From: an uncultured Alphaproteobacteria bacterium
GTDB lineage: Bacteria; Pseudomonadota; Alphaproteobacteria; JAJFIK01
Length of the DNA: 64,000 bases
NCBI GenBank assembly: GCA_964522525.1
Contig: CAZFWG010000001.1
Location: 36,341 to 100,340, forward strand
Reading direction: 5' to 3'
The position numbers and the translations under genes are program-made. Positions within the stretch are counted from its first letter, which is position 1. The number at the start of each line of letters is the position of its first letter. The notes below the pieces were generated by a model. The model had not been told where the DNA came from. It made no database searches and saw only the letters and a program-made list of their open reading frames with translations. This document shows positions 18,905-36,936 of this stretch, piece by piece.

Positions 18905-21658
18905 GTGATCATCTCCCACAAATACCAATTCATCTTCATTCGGACCAGCAAGACCGCTGGAACCAGCGTCGAGATCAGCCTGTCGCGGTTCTGCGGCCCC
19001 GACGATGTGGTGACGCCCCTGGACCCGGAAGAGGAATATGTCCGGCGGGACTTGGGTGTCCATCCCCGGCATTTTCTGCGTCCTCCGTTCCAGTTTCTGG
19101 CGGGCAACATGCTCAATCTCTTTCAGGTTCATCCCCCGTCCGGCCGCCTGCTGACGCGGATAGTGGGTCAGCGCTATTCCGCCTTCATGTCCGCCCGCGA
19201 GGTCAAAGCGCGGGTGGGCCCCGACATCTGGGACAGCTATACCAAATTCGCCATCGAACGGGACCCGCTCGACCGGTTGATGTCGTCCTACTATGCGGAT
19301 CTGGTGGCGGACCGGGTGCGGACCATCGACGAGTTCATGGCCCAGCCGACGCTTGAGTCCAATTTCGAGACCTATTCCCAGGACGGGGAGATCATCGTCG
19401 ACCGGATCCTGCGCTACGATCAGCTTAAAGAGGAGCTGCGGGACCTGTGTGGCCAGTTGGGCGTGCCCTTTGACGGCTGGCTGCCCCGCGCCAAGGCCAA
19501 CAACCGACGCAACAAGCGCAACTGGCGGGACTTGCTGGACGAGACGCAGATCGACCGGATCTGGTTTGAATGCGCGCGGGAATTCCGTGTCTTGAAGGAT
19601 TTGGGAGCGCCGCTTCCGGAGGAAGTCCTGCCGCTGGTCGAGCCGGCCCCGGCTCCCCGTCCCAAGGCGCCCGCAACCGAAGCGCCCCGATCGGAAACAC
19701 CAAGACCGGAAACACCCAGACCGCAGGCGCCCAAGCCGGAGAAAATCCGTCCGGCGGCACCAAAGACGCCGGCGCCCGAACCGGCCGCAACGAGACCAGC
19801 CGAAACCATCGCCAGGTCCGAGGGACCATCGGACCGGATCAATCGGAAGCCGGCCGCCGCCCCAAGCGCCGCGAAGCCGGTCCGCAAACCCGTGCGGGTG
19901 CGTCCCCAGGATCGGGCGCCCGAGCCCATTGTGGATCCTCTGCCGGCGCATCATCCGGGCCCGGCGCCCTCGGCGCCCCCATCCTCCGCGCGCGGCCAGA
20001 GCCCGCTTTCCGGGGAACTCCTGTCGGAAATCGACGCCCCCGCCCGGGATCCCGTGGTGCCCGAACCCGCGGTGGCGGAGGAACCCGCTCCCGTGCAAGG
20101 CACGCCAAAGGCGCGTCCCTGGCTTGATCCGGAACCGGCGGTGACCCCGTTGGAACGGGTCAATGGGCGGGGGGGCAAGCAAGACAAGACCGTCGCGTCC
20201 GCCGGCCGTCCGAAGACGCCGCGCCCGCCAAAGGAGCCCGTCGATCCGCTTGTGGATGTGCTGGCCGAGGTCAAGGCCGATCTGGTTCGCCCGAAGGGGC
20301 CCCTGCGGCCTGTTCCCTTGGACGAGGAGAAAGCGCCTCGGGATGGCGAGCCGTCACCGGCGGGGACCGTGTCCGAGGTGGCGGGCACGCAGGGCGGCGC
20401 CGTTGATCCCGCAGCCCCGAAATCCGCCGCCGGACCTTACGAAACCGTTGATAAGACCCTGGTCGATCACGATGCTGCGGAAATCGACGTGGCGGATGAC
20501 GGGCCCGATGGTTTTCCGGATGCGGCCGTCATGTCGAGCCTGCCGCAGGAGGAAACCGCGCCCCGTCCCCAGCCCGATGAGGGGCTGGACGCGGATGAAC
20601 TCCTCGGCTCGATCCGGGCCATTCAAGCGGTGCGCGCGGCTCAGGTGCCTGAAGGCGACGCCGTCTTGAGCTATGACGATGTGTGGCAGGGGGAGAAAAC
20701 CCCACAAGCGCCGCCGCCCGTTGAACCGGCGCCCCCCGCACGGGTCCCGGATCCGGAGCAGCGTCCGGCCCCGGTTCCCCCACAAGCTCCTGCAACGCAG
20801 CCGCCGCAAACGGACAGTGGATCGGCGCCTTTGTCCCCCTCCGCCATGATGGCCAAGGCCAAGGAAGGTCTTCCGAGCAAGGAATCTTTCCAGGCGCAGC
20901 TCAAGGCGGAGATCGAGAAATCACTGCGCAATGCCTTGAGCGAGGCTCTGGTGTCGCGCCGCATTGCCGAGGCCCTGCAAAAGCGGGTGGCCCGGAAAGA
21001 AGAACCGAGCGAAGCGGAAGAGGCGCTAAGCCAAATCGAGACAGCACCGGCGCCCCAAACTGAATCAAACGAGCCTCCCCTGTCCCGGGACGAGTCACCG
21101 TCAGCGCCCGTGCCATCGGTCCCCGAATCCAGTCCGGCCATCGCCATGCTGGAGCGTTTCCAGGAAAAATGGGCCCCGCTTTTGCGTCCGGAAACGGCAC
21201 GCGACCAAGGCAGCCAAAAGCTGAACGAGCCGCGCGCGCCGGCGCTTCCCGCCGCTTCGGGTTCGGGCCGCCCATCCGTTTCGCCGCCCCTGCAGGAAAC
21301 GCCGGTCGAGGCTTCGGCGAAGGCCGCGCCTGAGATCCAGATCGCCGCGCCGGATCCTCGACAGGTCCGGACCCAAACGGTGAAGGTCCCTCCCGCGCGC
21401 ACGCCGGGCATGTTCGATGAGACCGGGGCCGGGGGCCCGTTGACCCTGGCGCCGCCGGAACCGCCCGCTTGGCTCGATGATGACGATCTTTCCTGGTTGC
21501 CGGGATATGAATCCGACGACGAGGATGGTCCTTTCCCGGACGGGCTCGGCGGCCCGACCAGTGGTGCCGACAGCACAATGGTGACCACGGCGGCGCCCCC
21601 CGGCCAGACGGCCCCTGTGCCGGGTGTGCCCATCCTGCCGTCAACGCCCAGCAAATAA
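18905..21658 (+). CDS. NodH-like sulfotransferase domain (~250 aa) fused to a ~650-aa Pro/Ala/Glu-rich low-complexity tail
   Basis: N-terminus KYQFIFIRTSKTAGTSVE matches the PAPS 5'-phosphosulfate-binding loop of Sulfotransfer_3/NodH-type enzymes. The rest is compositionally biased (PAPEP/PRPETPRP-like repeats). It uses a GTG start. Codon usage is uniform across the whole ORF. Confidence 0.6.
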   Translation: MIISHKYQFIFIRTSKTAGTSVEISLSRFCGPDDVVTPLDPEEEYVRRDLGVHPRHFLRPPFQFLAGNMLNLFQVHPPSGRLLTRIVGQRYSAFMSAREVKARVGPDIWDSYTKFAIERDPLDRLMSSYYADLVADRVRTIDEFMAQPTLESNFETYSQDGEIIVDRILRYDQLKEELRDLCGQLGVPFDGWLPRAKANNRRNKRNWRDLLDETQIDRIWFECAREFRVLKDLGAPLPEEVLPLVEPAPAPRPKAPATEAPRSETPRPETPRPQAPKPEKIRPAAPKTPAPEPAATRPAETIARSEGPSDRINRKPAAAPSAAKPVRKPVRVRPQDRAPEPIVDPLPAHHPGPAPSAPPSSARGQSPLSGELLSEIDAPARDPVVPEPAVAEEPAPVQGTPKARPWLDPEPAVTPLERVNGRGGKQDKTVASAGRPKTPRPPKEPVDPLVDVLAEVKADLVRPKGPLRPVPLDEEKAPRDGEPSPAGTVSEVAGTQGGAVDPAAPKSAAGPYETVDKTLVDHDAAEIDVADDGPDGFPDAAVMSSLPQEETAPRPQPDEGLDADELLGSIRAIQAVRAAQVPEGDAVLSYDDVWQGEKTPQAPPPVEPAPPARVPDPEQRPAPVPPQAPATQPPQTDSGSAPLSPSAMMAKAKEGLPSKESFQAQLKAEIEKSLRNALSEALVSRRIAEALQKRVARKEEPSEAEEALSQIETAPAPQTESNEPPLSRDESPSAPVPSVPESSPAIAMLERFQEKWAPLLRPETARDQGSQKLNEPRAPALPAASGSGRPSVSPPLQETPVEASAKAAPEIQIAAPDPRQVRTQTVKVPPARTPGMFDETGAGGPLTLAPPEPPAWLDDDDLSWLPGYESDDEDGPFPDGLGGPTSGADSTMVTTAAPPGQTAPVPGVPILPSTPSK

Positions 21659-21767: not shown

Positions 21768-23579
21768 ATGATACGGAGGCTGTGGGCCGGCTGGCTGGGC
21801 TGGATCGACCGTTTCGCGGTCGAAGGCGCCGGTGAGGACTTCGTCGCAATCGTCCGTTACCGGACTTTGGCGACGACCAGCCTGCTGATTACCCTCCTCA
21901 TGCTGCCGAGCCCCGTCCGAGGCTACTTCGTGCTTGACCTGCCGGACTGGGTCGTGGGCTATCATGTCCTGTGTCTGCTCATGGTCGCGGCCGCCATGCC
22001 CACGATGGTCTTGACACGACACATTATATGGCCGACGACACAGATTGTGGCCGGCTTATATCTTTCCGTGATCGAAACAGGCCTGCGGGCCGGCGGTCTT
22101 GACGGCGCCACATCCCAGATCCTGGCTATTCTTCCCCTGGCCGCCGGTCTGATGCTGGGTATGCGCTATTGCCTCATTTGTGGTCTGATCGTTGTCTTGA
22201 CTTATGGCTTTTTGTTCTATGTTTCCGTCAGTCTTCCCGCCGCACCAATGGCCTCACCGTCCAGCGGGCCGGGCAGACAACTCCTCTACTATGTGATCGT
22301 CACCCTCGGCATCACCGGTTTCACCTTTGCGCTTCTTCTGATCCTGAAACATGCTGTCCGCTCTCTCGAGCAGGCCAGGGACATCGCCGATGCGGCCAAT
22401 CGGCAAAAATCCGAGTTCCTCGCCAATATGAGCCATGAAATCCGGACACCCATGAACGGCGTTCTGGGACTGCTCCATATTGCCCGTGAGAAGAACGCAT
22501 CGCCGGACGTCGGCGACCTGTTGGACGACGCCCATGCAAGTGCGGGTCTGCTGCTGGACATCATCAATGACATCCTGGATTTCTCGAAGCTGGAAGCTGG
22601 CTGTATGGCCATCCACGCCCGGCCCTTCGCGTTCAAGGAGACGGTCCGGCGGGTCGCCGCCCTCGTGAAGCCGAAAGCGGTCGAGAAGGGGCTCGATTTC
22701 CGGATCTCCTTTGACGCTGACATCCCCCCGTGCCTCATCGGAGACGAGACGCGACTTCAGCAGATCCTTTTCAATATCCTGGGCAACGCCGTCAAATTCA
22801 CGGATCAGGGCCGGGTCGATCTGCGGGTCACCGCGTTTGAGATCCAGGCGGAGCACGTCTCGCTGCGTATGGAGGTTGAGGATACGGGGCCCGGCCTTTC
22901 CGATTTCGACCGATCAAGGGTGTTTGAACGGTTTACCCAAGTCGATTCATCGGTGACTAAGACCAAAGGCGGCACGGGCCTGGGCCTTGCGATCTGCAAG
23001 CAGTTGGTGGATCTCATGGACGGGCGGATCGGTGTGGCCAGCCGGGAGGGCGAGGGGAGCTTGTTCTGGATAGAGATCACCCTGCCCATCGATCATGTCG
23101 GGGACATTCAACATCAGGACGAGACCAGCGTTGCATCGGGGGGACGGGCACTCCGGATATTGGTCGCCGAAGACAATATGATCAATCAGAAGATCATCGT
23201 TCTGATGCTGGAGAGTCTTGGGTTTGAACCGCCGATCCTCGTGGAGGACGGTCAGGCAGCCCTCGATATGCTGGGGACGAATGAGTTTGACGTGGCCCTT
23301 CTTGATATTCAGATGCCGACCAAGGACGGGTTGACCGTCGCCCGAGAGGCGCGTGCCCGATTGCAGAACGTCCCGCCCCTGATTGCCGTGACCGCCAATG
23401 CGATGGCCGGGGATGAAGAACGCTATTTGGACAATGGTTTTGACGGTTATGTCTCAAAACCCTTGAGTGCCCAGGCCCTCTGGACGGAGATCACCCGGGT
23501 CACTTGCGCATCGCGCAGCGTCGCTCAGCCGGGCAGGTCGCACAGTCAAGATCCGCCTGGAAGCCGCTCCGTTGCATGA
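21768..23579 (+). CDS. Hybrid sensor histidine kinase/response regulator (membrane-embedded sensor, HisKA, HATPase_c, C-terminal receiver)
   Basis: About six N-terminal TM helices. H-box ANMSHEIRTPMNG. N/G boxes LGNAVKFT and GGTGLGLAICK. Receiver domain has LVAEDN...DVALLDIQMP...VSKP. Confidence 0.8.
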   Translation: MIRRLWAGWLGWIDRFAVEGAGEDFVAIVRYRTLATTSLLITLLMLPSPVRGYFVLDLPDWVVGYHVLCLLMVAAAMPTMVLTRHIIWPTTQIVAGLYLSVIETGLRAGGLDGATSQILAILPLAAGLMLGMRYCLICGLIVVLTYGFLFYVSVSLPAAPMASPSSGPGRQLLYYVIVTLGITGFTFALLLILKHAVRSLEQARDIADAANRQKSEFLANMSHEIRTPMNGVLGLLHIAREKNASPDVGDLLDDAHASAGLLLDIINDILDFSKLEAGCMAIHARPFAFKETVRRVAALVKPKAVEKGLDFRISFDADIPPCLIGDETRLQQILFNILGNAVKFTDQGRVDLRVTAFEIQAEHVSLRMEVEDTGPGLSDFDRSRVFERFTQVDSSVTKTKGGTGLGLAICKQLVDLMDGRIGVASREGEGSLFWIEITLPIDHVGDIQHQDETSVASGGRALRILVAEDNMINQKIIVLMLESLGFEPPILVEDGQAALDMLGTNEFDVALLDIQMPTKDGLTVAREARARLQNVPPLIAVTANAMAGDEERYLDNGFDGYVSKPLSAQALWTEITRVTCASRSVAQPGRSHSQDPPGSRSVA

Positions 23580-23604: not shown

Positions 23605-24354
23605 CTAGAGCCGTCGAACGCTTTCGGGATCAATCCGAAAACGGAGAATGGCGCCGGCCTGTTCCAATTGGCCGGATGCCTCGATGGGATCCGCCACATA
23701 CCGCAGGAGCGAGTCCGGCATCGGATTGCCATCCGGATCGGTGATCAGAGCATTCGTGAAGCCGTTTTCGTGGCGCACAACGAAATGGGGCGGCACGCCC
23801 CCGATCAGGCAGAGCGTGGCGCAGGCCTTGTGAGCCTTCCCCGCGCCGGGCTTCATGACACCCAGAAAGCATTTGCTGTCGACAATTTCCCCACGGATCG
23901 TCCGAGGTCCAAGGCTTTCGATGAGGAGGGGCGTGACGCCCGACGTGCCGAAGGCGGTAATCGCCTCGTCGCCGTCAATGAACTCGATCGAGACGCGCCC
24001 CTGGCGCTCGATATAGAAGCCCTGAACCCGAACACGCTGGTCTTCGAGACCTTCGACCCGATCCTCCACGCCCAGTTTCCCAGTGGAAATCAGAGTGGCG
24101 ACTTTCTCGACACCGTCTTCCGTGTAGAACAGCATCGGGTAGGGGATGCGGCGCAGGGTTCCTTCGAAGGTCCGCGCCTCATCGCTGAGCCACCGACCGG
24201 TGCCGGGATCCTGCTGGGCGCCCGCGAGAAGGACGGCAAGGCCCGCGCTGGCCCCGAACAGGAATGCGGTCAGGATCATCATGGAGATGGCAAGACCGCG
24301 TGGCATGGGGGCAAGGCCGATATAGAACGGGCTTTCCGATGTCTTCTCTGCCAT
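23605..24354 (-). CDS. Membrane-anchored hypothetical protein with a C-x15-C-x3-C motif; last gene of the Rieske operon
   Basis: One N-terminal TM helix (AISMMILTAFLFGASAGLAVLLA). Contains CFLGVMKPGAGKAHKACATLC. GGAGGGA RBS before the ATG at 24354. Lies 10 nt downstream of the FRD-Rieske gene. Confidence 0.5.
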   Translation of the reverse strand: MAEKTSESPFYIGLAPMPRGLAISMMILTAFLFGASAGLAVLLAGAQQDPGTGRWLSDEARTFEGTLRRIPYPMLFYTEDGVEKVATLISTGKLGVEDRVEGLEDQRVRVQGFYIERQGRVSIEFIDGDEAITAFGTSGVTPLLIESLGPRTIRGEIVDSKCFLGVMKPGAGKAHKACATLCLIGGVPPHFVVRHENGFTNALITDPDGNPMPDSLLRYVADPIEASGQLEQAGAILRFRIDPESVRRL

Positions 24355-24366
24355 CACTCCCTCCGT

Positions 24367-25425
24367 CTACGCGCCATTCGGTGAAGCTGGGATCACGGCG
24401 GGTGCCTCCGGTGTGCCCGGCGGATTGGCTTTGGCATTGACCCAGACGATGCCGTCCTGAATGCCCACGCGATAGGTCGCAATCTTTTCCTGGTAGGGCG
24501 GCGGGGATTGCCCGCTTTCCGGCAGATATTGGTAGCCGTGCCAGGGACAGGTGATGCAGCCGTCGACGACGCGCCCTTCACCCAGGGGGCCGTTCTGATG
24601 GGCACAGACATTGCTGACGGCGGCGATCTTTCCGTCATATCGGAAGACGGCGATGCTGTCTTCGGGCCGGTGGATGATCTTGGCACGGTTGTTCGCGATA
24701 CTGTCGATGGGACCGACCTCGATCCACTCCTCGTCGATCACGGGGGAAACCCGGTCCGCGAAGGCCCGGCTCGTGCTGGTGATCAGGTGAAGCCCGCCGA
24801 CCCAGATGACGCTGCCCGCCAAAAGAGCCCAATAGGTCATGGACACTTCGTCCTGAAGAATGCCGAGTGCGATATGGACGCACAATGCCGCATAGGCGAC
24901 ATAGACGAACATATGAAGCGCCTTCCACAAGGGCGGCGACAGATTGGCGAGCCAGAAATCATGACTGGTCGCCGCCATCACGAACAAGACGATCAGCGCG
25001 AAGAACCCGAAGACTTCAAAGGGAATGACGGCGGTGGTCGAATAGTCCGCACTGGTGGCAAACAGGGAGACCAGAGGGCTGAGCACGCCGAAGCCGTGAT
25101 ACCATCCGAGGGCGATCACAAAATGGAAAAGCGCGATGAAGAAGGTGACCACACCGAAATGGCGCCGATTGTACAGCAGCGGCAGGAAGACCGTATTGAG
25201 TCGCGCCAGCGGACCGATGGACAGGATGATGGTCAGCATCAGGAAGGCACAGGTACCGAGCGCCCGGATCGCCATGATCGGCGGGCTGATCTCGTGGCCG
25301 GGTTCGGCGGTCAGAATGGAGACGACCATGAAGGTGACGAGATAGAGAACCACGCCCAGGCCCAGAAACAGATCATAGATCTTCTTGTTCCGGTTCCAGA
25401 GAACCATATTGTATCCGACGGCCAT
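24367..25425 (-). CDS. Fusion of a ferric-reductase-like (FRD/MsrQ-type) di-heme transmembrane domain with a C-terminal Rieske [2Fe-2S] domain
   Basis: Six predicted TM helices with two H-x12-H pairs on separate helices (RRHFGVVTFFIALFH and LHMFVYVAYAALCVH), the bis-His heme-b ligation pattern of FRD domains. The C-terminus has Rieske boxes CAHQNGPL and CPWHGYQY. Strong GGAGGGAG RBS. Confidence 0.7.
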   Translation of the reverse strand: MAVGYNMVLWNRNKKIYDLFLGLGVVLYLVTFMVVSILTAEPGHEISPPIMAIRALGTCAFLMLTIILSIGPLARLNTVFLPLLYNRRHFGVVTFFIALFHFVIALGWYHGFGVLSPLVSLFATSADYSTTAVIPFEVFGFFALIVLFVMAATSHDFWLANLSPPLWKALHMFVYVAYAALCVHIALGILQDEVSMTYWALLAGSVIWVGGLHLITSTSRAFADRVSPVIDEEWIEVGPIDSIANNRAKIIHRPEDSIAVFRYDGKIAAVSNVCAHQNGPLGEGRVVDGCITCPWHGYQYLPESGQSPPPYQEKIATYRVGIQDGIVWVNAKANPPGTPEAPAVIPASPNGA

Positions 25426-25468: not shown

Positions 25469-25651
25469 TCAGGCAAATCCGAGTGGGTCGGCAGAAAGGG
25501 GCATGCTCTGGGACCGCACGCCCAAACCTTCTTCCAGGGGCACGACCGGTGTTTCCCGGCGCGCCTCATAGGCGAGGATGAGGGCGAGCAGGGTCAAGGG
25601 CAAAAGGATCAGCCAGATGATCAGATGGGCACGTCTCTGGGCGCGCTTCAT
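25469..25651 (-). CDS. Small membrane protein (60 aa)
   Basis: Single TM helix LIIWLILLPLTLLALILA after a basic N-region. Starts 3 nt after the stop of the 77-aa gene. GGGGAAGG RBS. Confidence 0.4.
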   Translation of the reverse strand: MKRAQRRAHLIIWLILLPLTLLALILAYEARRETPVVPLEEGLGVRSQSMPLSADPLGFA

Positions 25652-25654
25652 GGT

Positions 25655-25888
25655 TCAAGCCTTCCCCTCTCGGGCGGGAATCCCGCCGCGAATCCAATGG
25701 TAAAGCAGAACAGGCCACAAGGCCACGCTTCCCGGGATGAGCAGGAGACGGACGGAAAGCTTGGCGCCCTTGGCGTTGGGGTCGACGCGGCCGATGCCGA
25801 TCGTGACAAAGATGACGGCGAAGATCAGTCCCGCCGCGAAATAGAGGGCCAAGGCGCTGACGATCATTTCCGCCGTTTGAATGTCCAT
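25655..25888 (-). CDS. Small two-TM membrane protein (77 aa)
   Basis: Two hydrophobic helices. GGAAAGG RBS 6 nt upstream. Tightly spaced within the operon. Confidence 0.45.
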   Translation of the reverse strand: MDIQTAEMIVSALALYFAAGLIFAVIFVTIGIGRVDPNAKGAKLSVRLLLIPGSVALWPVLLYHWIRGGIPAREGKA

Positions 25889-25917: not shown

Positions 25918-26511
25918 TCAGGAAGGAAGCGGCAGCGCTTCGTTCCGTTCAAGGTGTAATGCGTTGCGGCTTCCCGTTGTCCGCCAGAGGGCGGCCGCCA
26001 GAAGCACGCCGTATCCGGCCTGTATCCAGGGCGAAAGACCCGCCCATTGCCGCGCGGTCTCGGGCGCCATGCCCAGCAGCATGAACAGGCCCCCCGATTG
26101 ATCCGTACCGACACAGTGGCCGAGCAGGCCGGGGCCCACGGCGATGACGAGCCCGAACGCCGCCAGGACCATGAGGCTTGCCCGGTTGGTTTCGATGGCG
26201 CGCGCCCATGCAAGACCCATCAACACCGCAAGGCCCACGGACAGAACCACCTGGGTCAGGGTCACCGCATAGGAACGTTCCACGGGCATGCGGGCGGCAA
26301 GGTCGATCTCAAAAACGGGCAGGGCCCAGATCACTGCAGGATCCAAGACATGGAGCGTGGGCCAGGCCCGCCACAGGGGGGCGTCGAAAGCAAGCCGCAG
26401 GCTGCCGATTTCGCCATAGACAAAGAGCGCCGCCACCAGACCCGGCAGGGTGAAAACCGCATAAAGCGCCAACAGCACAAGGCCGAGGCGCACGGTCAGG
26501 CGCTCCGTCAT
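25918..26511 (-). CDS. Integral membrane protein (~197 aa, 5-6 TM helices), function unknown
   Basis: Start MTERLTV, whose ATG overlaps the TGA of the upstream Rieske-TPP gene (ATATGA). The upstream 39 codons of the ORF look non-coding. Confidence 0.5.
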   Translation of the reverse strand: MTERLTVRLGLVLLALYAVFTLPGLVAALFVYGEIGSLRLAFDAPLWRAWPTLHVLDPAVIWALPVFEIDLAARMPVERSYAVTLTQVVLSVGLAVLMGLAWARAIETNRASLMVLAAFGLVIAVGPGLLGHCVGTDQSGGLFMLLGMAPETARQWAGLSPWIQAGYGVLLAAALWRTTGSRNALHLERNEALPLPS

Positions 26512-28511
26512 ATCAGTTCCACATCCTGCATGATCTCGATCAAGGCGGGCTTGTCGCTCGCCAGCCCCTTGGCGAAAGCATCCTTCAGTTCCTCGCGCTG
26601 CGTGACCCGGATGCCGAGGCCTCCGCACAGGGTCGCATAGTCCGCAAAGGAAGGGTTATGCAGACTGGTCTGCCAGACCGGCCATTGTCCGGCCCGCTGT
26701 TCCTTGGAAATCTTGCCCAGTTCGCTGTTGTTGAGCAGGATATGGGTGATGTTCATGCCGTATTTCACGGCCGTGGTGAATTCGGCCATATACTGACCAA
26801 ACCCGCCATCGCCACTGATCGACACCACTTTGCGGTCGGGGCCGCCCGGCGCCGTGCCGGCCTTGACCGCGCACCAGGCGCCAAGTGCCGCCGGAAAGGC
26901 AAAGCCGATCGAGCCCAGATAGCCGGACATCAAGACGGCCTGGTGTTTGGGCTCGAAATAGCGGCCGAAGGAATAGGTGTTGTTGCCCACATCGACGGCG
27001 ATGACGGCATCATCCGGTATCGTATCATTGAGAACGTCGAACACCGCGGCCGCGGAAAGGCCCTTGCCCAGATCATCCGTCAGGCGGCGTTTTTTCTCCT
27101 CCCGCCAGATGCGCCAGCGTTCGGCGATTTCATCGCGCTGATCCACCCGGTCGGCGGTACCGTCAAGGGCGCCGCACATCAGATCGGCCGTGACCCCCAC
27201 TTCGCCCCAGACCGGCGCATGGACCATGTGAAACTTGCCCAGCGCCATCTGGTCGAAATCGACCTGGATCAGGATCTTGGAGGTGGAAATACCGGTGTGG
27301 TCGGAAAACGAGGCCCCGAAAACACAGATCACGTCGGCTTCATTCATGAACCAACTGGCGATCGGCGTCCCGCTGCGCCCCAACACGCCGGCGGCGAGGG
27401 GGTGGGCGTCGGGGATCTGGCCCTTGCCCTTGAAGGTCGTTAGGACAGGCGCGTTCAGACGCTCGGCCAGGGCGATGATCTTGTCCATGGCCGTGCGCGC
27501 GCCATAGCCCACGACGATGATCGGCCGTTTGGCGGCGTTCAGGAAACGCATGGCCTGATCGAGGGCGTCGGGCGCCGGGGCGATATGGGGGTCGCCGATC
27601 CGGCCCTTGGGGTTCGAGGGCCGGGCTTTTTCATCCGCCTTCTGAACCTGGACTTCATCGGGGAAGATCAGATGGGCCACGTCGCGTTTGATGGTGGCGT
27701 GTTTGAGCGCGAGCGTCATCAGCTCCGCATGATCCGAGTTCTGCAAGGTCGTCTGGCTGAAGGTGGCCACGGGCGCGAAGGCGGAGGCCAGATCGATTTC
27801 CTGGAAGGCGCCGGGGCCGAAAACCTGGGTGTTGACCTGGCCGGTCAAGGCCAGGACCGGGGCCCGGTCGACCTTGGCATCCCATAGGCCCGTGAGCAGA
27901 TTGGTGGCGCCCGGCCCCGCGATCGCCAGACAGGCGGCGGGCTTGCCCGACAATTTGGCATAGCCGGAACAGGCAAAGGACGCCGCCCCTTCATGGCGAA
28001 TGCCGATATAGCTGAGATGGCCCGCGTCCTCTTCCCGGCGCAGGGCATCGGCCAGACCCAGATTGGAATGGCCCACCATGCCGAAGACATGGGTGACCCC
28101 CCAACGGGTCATGGTCTGGGCCATGATATCGCTGACCGTCGTTTCATGGGGTCCGCGCCCCGGCACGCCGACATAGATCCCGTCTTCCCGTTCCTCCACG
28201 GGAAAGGTGTCGATGCCGTCATCATGACCGCCGGGCGAGGTGCCGTCCCGGGGGTCAAAGTCCCAGCCATGCCAGGGGCAGCGCAACCAGCACCGGCCTT
28301 CGGCGCCGGTCTCGATCGAGCCTTCGCCCAAGGGACCACCCTGGTGGGGGCAGCGGTTGTCGACCGCCCAATGACGGCCCTCGAATTTGGACAGGGCCAC
28401 CGATGTGGTACCGGCGGTCGCGCTCTTGACGCGGCCCTCGTCCAACTCATCGAGCTCGGCCACCTTGTGCCATTCGAGGTCCGGGTTTGGGGCGGCGCCT
28501 TTGGTGCTCAT
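26508..28511 (-). CDS. N-terminal Rieske [2Fe-2S] domain fused to a thiamine-pyrophosphate-dependent enzyme (acetolactate synthase/pyruvate oxidase family)
   Basis: Rieske boxes CPHQGGPL and CPWHGWDF in the first ~110 aa. Then TPP_enzyme_N (GVTHVFGMVGHSNL), central and C-terminal TPP-binding domains (GSIGFAFPAALGA, ISGDGGFGQY). 667 aa. Confidence 0.75.
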   Translation of the reverse strand: MSTKGAAPNPDLEWHKVAELDELDEGRVKSATAGTTSVALSKFEGRHWAVDNRCPHQGGPLGEGSIETGAEGRCWLRCPWHGWDFDPRDGTSPGGHDDGIDTFPVEEREDGIYVGVPGRGPHETTVSDIMAQTMTRWGVTHVFGMVGHSNLGLADALRREEDAGHLSYIGIRHEGAASFACSGYAKLSGKPAACLAIAGPGATNLLTGLWDAKVDRAPVLALTGQVNTQVFGPGAFQEIDLASAFAPVATFSQTTLQNSDHAELMTLALKHATIKRDVAHLIFPDEVQVQKADEKARPSNPKGRIGDPHIAPAPDALDQAMRFLNAAKRPIIVVGYGARTAMDKIIALAERLNAPVLTTFKGKGQIPDAHPLAAGVLGRSGTPIASWFMNEADVICVFGASFSDHTGISTSKILIQVDFDQMALGKFHMVHAPVWGEVGVTADLMCGALDGTADRVDQRDEIAERWRIWREEKKRRLTDDLGKGLSAAAVFDVLNDTIPDDAVIAVDVGNNTYSFGRYFEPKHQAVLMSGYLGSIGFAFPAALGAWCAVKAGTAPGGPDRKVVSISGDGGFGQYMAEFTTAVKYGMNITHILLNNSELGKISKEQRAGQWPVWQTSLHNPSFADYATLCGGLGIRVTQREELKDAFAKGLASDKPALIEIMQDVELI

Positions 28512-28689
28512 CAGGGACGGTCCTTTCGGTCGTTTCTTGACCCTTCACAGATTATGTTTCCCACGGTCATGCCCCGGGCGTCACCAGTTTACCATTGTAA
28601 AAAATGCGCGATCACAGAAAACAACTTGTCGTAAGCGGTTGAGACGGTCGAGCATGGCGCTCCCGGCGGTCACAAGGAGAGAATGCCCC

Positions 28690-30306
28690 ATGAAGAATCG
28701 CATCGCGATCGCCCAATGGGATGAATTGAAAGATCGGGATCCGACCTATGCCTGTGTGGCGAATGTGGATCTTGTGATCATTCGTTACGACAATCAGGTA
28801 TCGGTCCTTTACGGACGATGTCTGCATCGGGGTGCTCTCCTGGCCGATGGGCATATTCGCGGTGAGGACCTGATCTGTGGTGTACATAATTGGGATTATC
28901 GCTACGACACGGGCGTCAGCGCCTACAACAATGAAGAGGTCCTGCAGAAATTCACGACCGAGATCGATTCGGGCTATGTTTATGTGGATGCGGACGAGAT
29001 CGCGGCGTGGGAAAAGGACCATCCCCAGCCCTATGACCGTCAGGCCTATCTTGGTCTCTATGCGGATACGCAAGGGACGCCGGACGAACCGCACACCGCG
29101 TTCATCCAGGAACTCGCCAATCATGGCCTGAAACGGGTGGGCCACCACGGGCCCATGGCGGCCATGGGCGTGCCCTTTCACACCCTTCCCCAGTGGGACG
29201 ACATTCAATTCGTCACGGCCCAGTTGCACCGTTTCCCGCTGCTTGATGAGGATCCGGTGGCGAGCGACGTGGTGATCGGCCCCAAGGCCAGACGGCCCCT
29301 CAAACTCGACATTCCCTTGCTGGTCTCGGATATGAGCTTCGGGGCGCTCTCCCAGGAAGCCAAGCTCGCCCTCGCCAAGGGCGCGGACGACGCGGGCACG
29401 GGCATCTGCTCGGGCGAGGGCGGCATGCTGCCCGAGGAGCAGGAAGCCAATCGGCGCTATTTCTATGAGCTGGCCTCGGCCCGTTTCGGCTTTTCCTGGG
29501 ACGCGGTTGGTAAGGTTCAGGCTTTCCATTTCAAGGGAGGTCAGGGCGCCAAGACCGGCACCGGCGGCCATGTGCCGGGCAGCAAAGTCACGGGCAAGGT
29601 GGCGCAGGTGCGCGGTCTTCAGGAGGGGGAGCCCGCGGTCTCGCCGGCCCGTTTTCCCGACTGGACCGAGCTGCGCCAGATCCGGGATTTCGCCGAGGAA
29701 GTGCGCGAGCGCACCGGCGGTATTCCCATCGGCTACAAGCTTTCCGCGCAGCAGGTGGAAAAGGACATCGACGCGGCGCTCAAGGTCGGTGTCGACTACA
29801 TCATCCTCGACGGCCGGGGCGGCGGCACCGGTGCCGCGCCGACCCTGTTTCGGGACCACATCGCCGTGCCCACGATTCCGGCCCTGGCCCGGGCCCGGCG
29901 CCATCTCGACCATCTGGGCTGTGCCCATGTCACGCTGATCGTGACCGGGGGCCTGCGCACGCCGGCCGATTTCGCCAAGGCGCTGGCGCTGGGGGCCGAC
30001 GCCATTGCCCTTTCCAACGCGGCGATGATGGCCATCGGCTGTCTGGCCATGCGGGCCTGCAACACCAACAACTGTCCCGTCGGTATTACCTCCATGAAGG
30101 ACCATCTCAGGGCGCGCCTTGAGATCGAGGCCTCGGCCCGTCGATTGCACAATTTTTTCGAAGCCTCGGTCGATCTTATGAAGGTAATGGCAAGGGCCTG
30201 CGGTCATCATCATTTGGGGGACTTCTGTCTTGAGGACTTGGTCACCTGGAAGGATGACGTGGCAAAGCTGACGGGCGTTCCCTATGGCGGCGTGGGGCGC
30301 TCATAG
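28690..30306 (+). CDS. N-terminal Rieske-type [2Fe-2S] domain fused to an FMN-binding glutamate-synthase-family (GltS FMN) domain
   Basis: Rieske-like boxes CLHRGALL and CGVHNWDY. Then the Glu_synthase-type FMN/Fe-S barrel (SDMSFGALS, GEGG, KVAQ..GQGAKTGTGGHVPG, ILDGRGGGTGAAP). AAGGAGAG RBS 9 nt before the ATG at 28690. The 101 in-frame codons upstream were rejected. Confidence 0.75.
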   Translation: MKNRIAIAQWDELKDRDPTYACVANVDLVIIRYDNQVSVLYGRCLHRGALLADGHIRGEDLICGVHNWDYRYDTGVSAYNNEEVLQKFTTEIDSGYVYVDADEIAAWEKDHPQPYDRQAYLGLYADTQGTPDEPHTAFIQELANHGLKRVGHHGPMAAMGVPFHTLPQWDDIQFVTAQLHRFPLLDEDPVASDVVIGPKARRPLKLDIPLLVSDMSFGALSQEAKLALAKGADDAGTGICSGEGGMLPEEQEANRRYFYELASARFGFSWDAVGKVQAFHFKGGQGAKTGTGGHVPGSKVTGKVAQVRGLQEGEPAVSPARFPDWTELRQIRDFAEEVRERTGGIPIGYKLSAQQVEKDIDAALKVGVDYIILDGRGGGTGAAPTLFRDHIAVPTIPALARARRHLDHLGCAHVTLIVTGGLRTPADFAKALALGADAIALSNAAMMAIGCLAMRACNTNNCPVGITSMKDHLRARLEIEASARRLHNFFEASVDLMKVMARACGHHHLGDFCLEDLVTWKDDVAKLTGVPYGGVGRS

Positions 30307-35607: not shown

Positions 35608-36936
35608 TCAGCCGCCCGTGGCCTGACGCAGGGCATCCAGCAGATGATCCGTGGCAAAACCATCCGCCGTCAGGCCCCGGTCGCGTTGGAAGGAGCGGAT
35701 CGCCGCGCGGGTCCGGGCGCCCAGAATGCCATCCACTTCGCCGATCTTGTATCCGGCCGTGATGAGGCGGCGCTGCATTTCCTCCCGCTCGGACCGGGAC
35801 AGGATCTTGGTATCCCGGGGCCAGGCGGCCTGGAACGGGCCCGCCCCGGCGATGCGATCGGAGAGATGGGCAATGCCCAGCGCATAGGCCGTAGCCGGAT
35901 TATAGCGCATGATCGATCGGAAATTGCCGTAGATCAGGAAGGCCGGACCCCGATGGCCGCCTGGCACGATGAGCGATGCCTTGATGTCGGCGGCGGGCAG
36001 GGGCGCCCCTCCCGGGCGGCGCACGCCCAGGGTTGCCCATTGGCTGATCGGCTTCGTCGTCTGACGCCCGGCCAGGGCATAGTCAAAGCCGTCGGGCAGG
36101 GCGACTTCCCGGCCCCAGCGATAGTCCGGGTCCCATTTGGCCTTTTTCAGGAAGTTCGCCGTCGAGGCGAAGGCATCCGGCAGGCTGTCCCAGATGTCCC
36201 GTCGCCCGTCACCGTCAAAGTCGACGGCCGATTCAAGAAAGCTTGAGGGCATGAACTGGGTATGGCCCATGGCCCCGGCCCAGGATCCCTTGAGTTCCGA
36301 ACGCGGTTTATCTCCGGCCTGAATGATTTTGAGCGTGTTGATCAGCTCCCGCTCTCCGAAGGTGCGCCGCCGCCCCGTATAGGCAAAGGTCGCCAGGGAC
36401 CGGACCACGTCATATTTGCCGCGCAAGGCCCCGTAGCTGGTCTCAAGGCCCCAAATGGCCACGATCACGCGCGCCGGCACCCCGTAAGCCTGTTCCACTT
36501 GGGCGAGAAGCGCCCGGTGCTGATCAAGCTTCGCCTTGCCATTGCGCACCCGCGTCTGGGACACGGCGCCATCGAGATATTCCCAGATCGGACGGGTGAA
36601 TTCGGGTTGCCGGGCATTGCGGCGCAGGACTTCCGGGTCCGGCGTCACGCCGGCCATTTCCGCGTCATAGAGGTCGGCGCGGATCCCGGCGCGAATCGCC
36701 TGGGCCCGGAAGCGGGTCCGCCACGCATCGAAGCCCGGCGGGATCACCACTTCAGGGACTGTCGGCTTGCTCGGCGCCGCGCCCTTCGCCTTCACGACGG
36801 GGATGGGGATCTCTTCCTGGGCCACGGCGGTGGCCGCGCCGAAGCCTTGCGCGAGGGCCAGCAACGCGGCGCCTGCGACCATGGACATGTTCGATCGCCG
36901 ATCGTGGGGGAGACGCGGGCTGAAGCGCGAAGCCAT
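35608..36936 (-). CDS. Lytic murein transglycosylase (MltB/Slt35-like) with C-terminal peptidoglycan-binding domain
   Basis: Signal peptide. MltB-like core. C-terminal PG_binding_1 (GEVDGILGARTRAAIRSFQRDRGLTADGFATDHLLDAL). AGAGGA RBS before the ATG at 36936. Confidence 0.75.
   Translation of the reverse strand: MASRFSPRLPHDRRSNMSMVAGAALLALAQGFGAATAVAQEEIPIPVVKAKGAAPSKPTVPEVVIPPGFDAWRTRFRAQAIRAGIRADLYDAEMAGVTPDPEVLRRNARQPEFTRPIWEYLDGAVSQTRVRNGKAKLDQHRALLAQVEQAYGVPARVIVAIWGLETSYGALRGKYDVVRSLATFAYTGRRRTFGERELINTLKIIQAGDKPRSELKGSWAGAMGHTQFMPSSFLESAVDFDGDGRRDIWDSLPDAFASTANFLKKAKWDPDYRWGREVALPDGFDYALAGRQTTKPISQWATLGVRRPGGAPLPAADIKASLIVPGGHRGPAFLIYGNFRSIMRYNPATAYALGIAHLSDRIAGAGPFQAAWPRDTKILSRSEREEMQRRLITAGYKIGEVDGILGARTRAAIRSFQRDRGLTADGFATDHLLDALRQATGG

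Follow-up and report, generated by a model that had tools for sequence, protein, structure and literature searches.

Thiamine diphosphate (TPP) flavoenzymes of the pyruvate oxidase (POX) type pass their electrons to O2 or to quinone. Acetohydroxyacid synthase (AHAS), Gcl and cyclohexanedione hydrolase (CDH) retain flavin adenine dinucleotide (FAD) without net redox turnover, and in pyruvate:ferredoxin oxidoreductase (PFOR) hydroxyethyl-TPP can be oxidised by Fe-S clusters. Upstream of [2Fe-2S] carriers, a converter from two-electron to one-electron transfer is the norm. The window analysed here is a stretch of 64,000 nucleotides (64 kb) from an uncultured alphaproteobacterium (GenBank assembly GCA_964522525.1, contig CAZFWG010000001.1, forward-strand positions 36,341 to 100,340). 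On its minus strand, the gene at 26508..28511 encodes a protein of 667 aa in which a Rieske ferredoxin-like domain is joined to a TPP enzyme. It is a known kind of enzyme in a new form, set in an undescribed multi-protein redox module. With somewhat better than even confidence, the fusion is proposed to act in the cytoplasm as a decarboxylating 2-oxo-acid oxidoreductase that depends on flavin and TPP and belongs to the POX/PoxB lineage; its outlet would be its own Rieske domain and, onward from there, the Rieske domains of partner proteins.

Architecture and distribution of the fusion

The open reading frame (ORF) began with ATG and continued across all 667 aa without an internal stop. A Shine-Dalgarno-like AAAGGA was located about 11 nt 5' of the ATG, and the third-position GC was high, as expected for a real gene in this window. 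Four Pfam domains were identified in this one ORF, Rieske (residues 13-91, E 7e-15; the Rieske_2 model reached residues 13-114), TPP_enzyme_N (125-242, E 8e-33), TPP_enzyme_M (318-441, E 3e-32) and TPP_enzyme_C (507-660, E 1e-31), and a 100% identical protein (P0001), encoded on an NCBI contig of 115 kb, was present in the database. The first-pass annotation, made from the letters and the translated reading frames, had described a Rieske domain covalently fused to a complete three-domain TPP enzyme, and this description was borne out. The two boxes which it had pointed out, CPHQGGPL and CPWHGWDF, were found at 28269-28352 on the minus strand, where they supply the ligand pairs C54-x-H56 and C78-x-x-H81 of the N-terminal [2Fe-2S] domain (residues 13-114, 28170..28475).

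The same four-domain architecture was found in all of the best 120 matches from a search of 5.8 billion proteins, with identities of 67-86%. In a scan of one genome per species, at least 587 fusion relatives were confirmed, the best 80 of which had identities of 63-83%. Among these 80, the proteobacterial hosts were Alpha- and Gammaproteobacteria, including Woeseiaceae, Hyphomicrobiales, Hyphomonadaceae and sponge symbionts, while others belonged to Planctomycetota, Acidobacteriota, Gemmatimonadota, Nitrospirota, Poribacteria, Calditrichia and a cyanobacterium; almost all of the samples were marine or taken from sediment. Cultured strains with an orthologue include Alpha proteobacterium Mf 1.05b.01 (BAOK01000001.1, L044) and Leptothoe kymatousa TAU-MAC 1615 (L063). 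Across several phyla, the residues C54, H56, C78 and H81, the catalytic Glu174 and the TPP motif GDG567-569...NN594-595 proved invariant when 45 and when 49 members were aligned, and the linker between the Rieske and PYR domains was conserved in length at 8-10 residues.

The possibility that a frameshift, a mis-assembly or a chance Cys/His pattern mimics a fusion is negligible and was rejected. The first-pass annotation had named unconserved boxes in the orthologues, or a frameshift hiding a separate Rieske gene, as what would speak against it, and the opposite was observed in both respects: the continuous architecture recurred in each of the 120 best database matches and in no fewer than 587 loci of the genome scan, and the four ligands were invariant in a domain matched by Pfam at the E value given above. 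Nothing was found in favour of an artefact. The fusion is a real and widely conserved enzyme architecture, not a one-off. No published description of Rieske- or rubredoxin-fused TPP enzymes of this family was found in the full-text literature, and the components of the module have generic database names such as "TPP-binding protein", "pyruvate oxidase" or "hypothetical".

The TPP enzyme and its probable built-in carrier

By sequence, the fusion belongs to the POX/PoxB/AHAS superfamily of TPP enzymes, in which PYR, middle and PP domains follow in series. The best solved relatives were E. coli PoxB (3EYA, E 5e-61), AHAS and the L. plantarum pyruvate oxidase (LpPOX), with identities to the PoxB/PQO/LpPOX group of only about 26-30%. 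A fold search with an AlphaFold model of moderate confidence (pLDDT 72.7, pTM 0.71, residues 196-287 poor) was topped by LpPOX, PoxB, AHAS and C. glutamicum PQO, with TM-scores of about 0.65-0.82 to POX and PoxB. Among NCBIfam models, the pyruvate oxidase model PRK08611 scored best (385 bits against a cut-off of 742); the scores were 289 against 538 for the AHAS large-subunit model TIGR00118, 284 against 792 for PRK09124 and 283 against 638 for TIGR02720. Every score is far below its equivalog cut-off, so that none of the named enzymes is an equivalog of the fusion. Tandem proteins of about 1080-1190 aa, composed of two complete POX/AHAS-like TPP enzymes (P0148, P0159, P0163 and similar), were also observed among the distant relatives.

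The PYR domain (residues 125-242, 27786..28139, minus strand) carries Glu174, which aligned with the RHE motif of PoxB and corresponds to the TPP-activating Glu, and the pair F236-Q237. In the PP domain (residues 507-660, 26532..26993, minus strand), the GDG...NN motif is followed by the invariant Lys600 and by Glu604. In the alignment to PoxB, F236-Q237 and Glu604 correspond to residues of the POX/PoxB active site. Lys600, Lys603 and Arg606 are basic residues of the active-site loop, invariant in the fusion family. The alignment ended at PoxB residue 526 and the fusion protein stops 6 residues later, so the C-terminal membrane-binding/activation peptide of PoxB (residues ~527-572) is absent from it. 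By family resemblance, pyruvate would be the default substrate; the basic loop would also be compatible with an acidic 2-oxo acid, 2-oxoglutarate for example.

The middle domain (residues 318-441, 27189..27560, minus strand) is putatively FAD-binding. It retains invariant blocks typical of nucleotide-binding members (RPxxxxGxGA, TTFKxKG, GVLGRSGTP, GxSFSxHTG and D418), and when it was searched alone, the best matches were AHAS I, plant AHAS, CsmA/BbmA, CDH and POX, all of which bind FAD. At the level of domain similarity, it is therefore consistent with the FAD-binding type. The first-pass annotation had assigned FAD or external ferredoxins to the family as usual acceptors. The former is right for POX-family enzymes, whereas external ferredoxins belong to the unrelated PFOR and 2-oxo-acid:ferredoxin oxidoreductases (OFOR), and no PFOR/OFOR domain (POR_N, PFOR_II, POR) was found in the fusion by Pfam.

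For the Rieske domain, the nearest solved relatives were the soluble shuttle ferredoxins T4moC, naphthalene dioxygenase ferredoxin (NDO-Fd), BphF and CarAc. An extra cysteine, Cys74, is missing from several phyla, and no conserved disulfide pair of the bc1/b6f type was found in the family alignment. With its ligands, without such a pair and with its likeness to shuttle ferredoxins, the domain resembles the low-potential ferredoxin type. No signal peptide was found in the fusion protein, so the Rieske domain would be cytoplasmic.

To find relatives beyond the Rieske-bearing family, 1.84 billion cluster representatives were searched exhaustively with HMMER. In the nearest of them, a rubredoxin of 55 aa stands at the N-terminus, in the same position as the 110-aa Rieske domain (P0127 with 50% identity; P0134, P0135, P0141 and P0144 with 37-42%), and the equivalent of Lys600 is kept in the two closest. 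In one member (P0121, 873 aa, 60% identity), CDGSH-Fer4_19-CDGSH precedes the Rieske-TPP part. That a single enzyme lineage was fused independently to one-electron carriers of three kinds is difficult to account for without electron transfer between the enzyme and its carrier. Little could be learned from the gene contexts of the relatives with rubredoxin or with added CDGSH domains (L086-L089, L175), and in the few loci seen no partner with a glutamate-synthase-like or ferric-reductase-type domain was found beside the rubredoxin-fused ones.

These parallel fusions, together with the Rieske-bearing partners encoded alongside, back one part of the suggestion in the first-pass annotation that a TPP-acyl intermediate is coupled directly, by one-electron transfer, to a built-in Fe-S acceptor. 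The built-in carrier is supported and the direct step is not: the nucleotide-binding signature of the middle domain, its best matches among FAD binders, and the kinship with PoxB, LpPOX and PQO by sequence and by fold make a route from TPP through FAD to the Rieske cluster more likely than one from TPP straight to Fe-S.

Neighbouring genes and their linkage to the fusion

Three Rieske boxes were found in the whole window; besides that of the fusion, two neighbouring genes contain one apiece. The first neighbour is divergent from the fusion, across an intergenic region of 178 bp delimited by the flanking ORFs (28512..28689), in which no consensus sigma-70 site was found. It encodes a protein of 538 aa (28690..30306, plus strand; Pfam Rieske and Glu_synthase) in which an N-terminal Rieske domain is combined with the flavin mononucleotide (FMN) domain of glutamate synthase (GltS) and a 3Fe-4S motif, C-x5-C-x4-CP. 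Its 3Fe-4S cysteines aligned with C1102, C1108 and C1113 of the GltS structure 1EA0, and it was also aligned to the GltS structure 1LLW. The residues E903, Q969, K972 and R992 of the Synechocystis ferredoxin-dependent enzyme (Fd-GltS) are kept, with Q978 replaced by His and S1011 by Glu. No glutaminase or GXGXG domain was found in the Rieske-GltS protein (28690-30306). Such proteins are about 70% identical across phyla, with at least 490 relatives in one metagenome scan, and are uncharacterised; neither they nor the gene module were described in the full-text literature searched.

Downstream of the fusion, on the same strand, its operon continues with three small membrane ORFs, the second Rieske neighbour and a 250-aa protein. 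The first of the small ORFs (197 aa, 25918..26511, transmembrane prediction) has its ATG overlapping the TGA of the fusion (ATGA) and is poorly conserved, with a homologue in one other locus only (L006). A two-helix membrane protein of 77 aa (25655..25888), as judged from 20 loci and transmembrane prediction, is conserved along with the second Rieske gene, and a single-helix ORF of 60 aa (25469..25651) occupies the position held by a 45-49-aa gene elsewhere (L090, L091). The second Rieske gene (24367..25425, minus strand; Pfam Ferric_reduct and Rieske) encodes 352 aa, a ferric-reductase-type (FRD) membrane domain with a C-terminal Rieske domain that is 33% identical to the fusion's. Its His pairs H89/H101 and H171/H184 and its Rieske ligands are invariant in 22 orthologues, about six helices with the N-terminus inside are predicted, and these features fit a dihaem transmembrane conduit with a cytoplasmic Rieske domain. 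The last gene (23605..24357, minus strand) encodes a membrane-anchored protein of 250 aa without family assignment, with two OB-like barrels and invariant C163, H176, C179 and C183.

Linkage was counted in 83 fusion loci, each with flanking sequence of at most 10 kb. The Rieske-GltS gene was found within 10 kb of the fusion in 33 of them, and the triad of 77-aa peptide, FRD-Rieske and 250-aa protein, always together, in 22. A tight same-strand operon made up of the fusion, Rieske-GltS, small peptides, FRD-Rieske and 250-aa protein is present in loci of Hyphomonadaceae and Maricaulaceae and in L091; the order fusion, Rieske-GltS, 77-aa peptide, FRD-Rieske and 250-aa protein on one strand was seen in L028, L036, L040, L053 and L091. 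In the reverse direction, the fusion was present in 17 of 80 metagenome loci of Rieske-GltS, and in 6 of the 20 with at least 3 kb on both sides; the gaps between the two genes were often 4-bp overlaps or 8 bp. The fusion and FRD-Rieske were the only Rieske proteins that recurred beside Rieske-GltS. A DUF5996-like gene (280 aa, on either side of the fusion, e.g. L001 12015-12869 and L004 9152-9991) was found in 17 of the 83 loci, in most of them within 26 bp of the fusion and never alongside the triad, as if it and the triad were alternative partners.

A pairing of the same kind was found without any Rieske domain in an archaeal locus. P0140, an unfused archaeal relative, shares 40% identity with the TPP part and reaches 539 bits with the model for pyruvate oxidase. 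It is encoded directly 3' of a 411-aa Glu_synthase-only protein (L173 4485-7641; also L174), which is 40% identical to the window's Rieske-GltS (E 8e-89) and keeps the 3Fe-4S motif. The pair is flanked by amt and P-II genes upstream and by acylphosphatase downstream. Because the unfused genes adjoin likewise, the pairing of TPP enzyme and GltS-like protein appears to be older than the Rieske fusions.

Several other genes recurred near the module. A CPA-family K+/H+-antiporter-like gene, below the NCBIfam cut-offs, was present in 17 of the 83 fusion loci (e.g. L008 6191-7468) and in 12 GltS loci; it recurs beside Rieske-GltS, where it often opens or closes the operon. Genes for an extracytoplasmic function (ECF) sigma factor and one or two zf-HC2 anti-sigma factors (HxxxCxxC; ZAS) are divergent beside the module in about 9 of the 83 fusion loci and 6 of the 80 Rieske-GltS loci (e.g. 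L028 8391-9716, L036, L053 and L104 1078-2000), which hints at control by redox or envelope stress. Where FRD-Rieske occurs without the fusion in Phycisphaerae, it adjoins ECF sigma/anti-sigma, DinB_2 and TANGO2 genes (L090, L092). Two candidate associations were dropped. A malic enzyme at the operon end, considered as a hint to pyruvate, was given no weight, as it was seen only in three closely related loci and one other; and a role as reductase of a Rieske oxygenase was rejected, the alpha subunit being confined to the L002 context (with its duplicate L003) and one GltS locus.

In the window itself, a hybrid histidine kinase (HisKA-HATPase-receiver, 21768-23579, plus strand) is convergent with the operon end, and similar kinases (about 37% identity) were found 3' of the fusion in five Parvibaculaceae-like loci (L027, L043, L044, L049, L077). 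An ORF of 917 aa (18905-21658, plus strand) has a good coding signal, and its sole match, to a sulfotransferase family, is weak and covers the first 144 residues. The rest is ordinary chromosomal content, with two TonB-dependent receptors, a P450, a MacB-type exporter, a pyruvate kinase and a sigma-54 activator. No tRNA gene and no Rfam family above gathering score was found in the whole window, and no promoter or terminator signal above chance bears on the fusion locus.

Proposed function, rival explanations and comparison with known systems

In the proposed reaction, a 2-oxo acid, most simply pyruvate, would add to TPP and be decarboxylated, and the resulting enamine would hand two electrons to FAD. 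The flavin would split the pair and pass its electrons singly to the Rieske cluster, with acetate or acetyl phosphate as the remaining product, so that the enzyme's own Rieske domain would serve as outlet in place of O2 or quinone. From there, electrons would pass to the Rieske domains of adjacently encoded partners. One partner would be the GltS-like Rieske/3Fe-4S/FMN reductase, which would probably carry out the reductive amination of 2-oxoglutarate. The other, in this window, would be the dihaem FRD membrane protein, which would take up electrons through its cytoplasmic Rieske tail and pass them outward to the membrane-anchored double-OB-fold protein. Since the POX-type enzyme is by homology the sole oxidative member of the set, with GltS domains working reductively and FRD proteins carrying electrons out, electrons are expected to flow from it to the partners. 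A more specific version, in which the fusion and Rieske-GltS together constitute a pyruvate-driven glutamate synthase without NAD(P)H or ferredoxin and the same outlet also powers the dihaem conduit to the periplasmic protein, is judged less likely than not.

Several observations weigh against this proposal. More than half of the fusion loci have no partner of either kind within 10 kb; the gene that closely adjoins the fusion in 17 loci is instead the DUF5996-like one; and the FRD-Rieske/250-aa module occurs without the fusion in Phycisphaerae. The archaeal pairing amounts to two near-identical contigs with the same gene pair. For the enzyme itself, the structural model is only moderately confident, putative FAD binding is read from domain-level similarity, and no NCBIfam equivalog cut-off was reached, so pyruvate is only a putative substrate. 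In addition, the position of PoxB Phe465 is held by the invariant Lys600. Phe465 of PoxB and Phe479 of LpPOX form an aromatic electron relay between TPP and flavin, and with Lys in this place the detailed electron path may differ from that of PoxB.

The replacement of the relay is also what speaks for a direct transfer as envisaged in the first-pass annotation, in which there would be no functional flavin and the Rieske cluster would oxidise the hydroxyethyl-TPP enamine in one-electron steps through a TPP radical, as the Fe-S clusters of PFOR can. The Fe-S domain is moreover joined to the PYR domain by a short conserved linker. This reading is nevertheless decidedly unlikely, given the nucleotide-binding blocks and FAD-binding best matches of the middle domain, the fact that all of the closest relatives are flavoenzymes, and the two- to one-electron converter usual before [2Fe-2S] carriers. 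A non-redox carboligase or lyase (AHAS-, Xsc-, Gcl- or HACL-like), with the Rieske domain sensing redox state or O2 or keeping a structural FAD reduced, would accord with the idle FAD of AHAS, Gcl and CDH, with the rank of AHAS close behind PoxB in every search, and with the ECF sigma and ZAS anti-sigma neighbours in some loci, which hint at redox-stress control. It is held to be quite improbable: the independent fusions to Rieske, rubredoxin and CDGSH/Fer4 domains argue for electron throughput, as does the linkage to FMN/3Fe-4S and dihaem partners, and no AHAS small-subunit (ilvN/ilvH-like) gene was found among the recurrent neighbours of the fusion loci.

The two enzymes might instead work as a catabolic pair. 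The GltS-like protein would then act oxidatively, turning glutamate into 2-oxoglutarate and NH4+, and the fusion would decarboxylate this 2-oxoglutarate oxidatively to succinate or succinyl phosphate, with the Rieske domains of both proteins passing electrons to FRD-Rieske. In its favour, one enzyme would make what its neighbour consumes, translational coupling of their genes is frequent, and the FRD-Rieske gene is in the same operon; Rieske-GltS keeps the GltS residues that bind 2-oxoglutarate, and the loop with Lys600, Lys603 and Arg606, which carries Phe in POX and PoxB, might accommodate a distal carboxylate. On the other side, the archaeal pair beside amt and P-II points to assimilation, the best family models are those of pyruvate-using enzymes, and the FRD triad is absent from most loci with both enzymes; to our knowledge, no GltS-type FMN domain is a physiological glutamate dehydrogenase. 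A catabolic pair is thus possible but rather unlikely.

If the preferred reading, a flavin-dependent 2-oxo-acid oxidoreductase with a Rieske outlet, is right, then the Rieske-fused clade (at least 587 species) and its rubredoxin-fused sister clade would add a third outlet to the POX-type class, namely a protein-to-protein one-electron wire driven by 2-oxo acids. The conserved pairing with GltS-like proteins, seen also in the unfused archaeal locus, makes the TPP enzyme a specific candidate for the role of reducing GltS-like proteins that stand alone. Should the pyruvate-driven synthase be true, it would catalyse pyruvate + 2-oxoglutarate + NH4+ -> acetate or acetyl phosphate + CO2 + glutamate, name the missing donor of stand-alone GltS-like FMN proteins in bacteria and archaea, and give marine microbes an ATP-free, strongly driven ammonium assimilation. 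The link to the FRD cytochrome and the periplasmic 250-aa protein points to an undescribed route of electron export.

Among known systems, PoxB, PQO and LpPOX share with the fusion the three-domain fold, the catalytic Glu, the GDG...NN motif, the F-Q pair and the equivalent of Glu604, and by analogy their oxidative decarboxylation with electron exit through flavin is its most likely chemistry. The fusion differs from them by its N-terminal Rieske domain, the lack of the C-terminal peptide of PoxB, Lys600 in place of the Phe relay and the low identity of about 26-30%, and its acceptor would be a protein-bound Fe-S centre instead of quinone or O2. The rubredoxin-fused POX-like proteins, for which no literature was found, belong to the same TPP lineage (37-50% identity) and carry an N-terminal one-electron iron carrier in the same place. 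With PFOR and OFOR, the likeness would be functional only, in TPP-dependent oxidative decarboxylation with electrons leaving through Fe-S to ferredoxin-type acceptors; those enzymes are of an unrelated family, with POR domains and [4Fe-4S] clusters, and they are CoA-dependent and without flavin. The usual logic of Rieske oxygenase systems, from flavoprotein to [2Fe-2S] carrier to another Rieske centre, is like that proposed for the fusion, except that the reductant would be a 2-oxo acid through TPP and not NAD(P)H, and that no oxygenase alpha subunit recurs.

The partners compare with known systems in a similar manner. Rieske-GltS has in common with Fd-GltS the FMN barrel, the 3Fe-4S cysteines and the residues E903, Q969, K972 and R992, while it is without the glutaminase and GXGXG domains and has a Rieske domain where ferredoxin would dock. 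FRD-Rieske shares with MsrQ, NOX and FRE the two His pairs typical of dihaem FRD domains, and differs from them in having a Rieske tail in place of the FAD/NADPH domain and, downstream, a double-OB protein, not MsrP.

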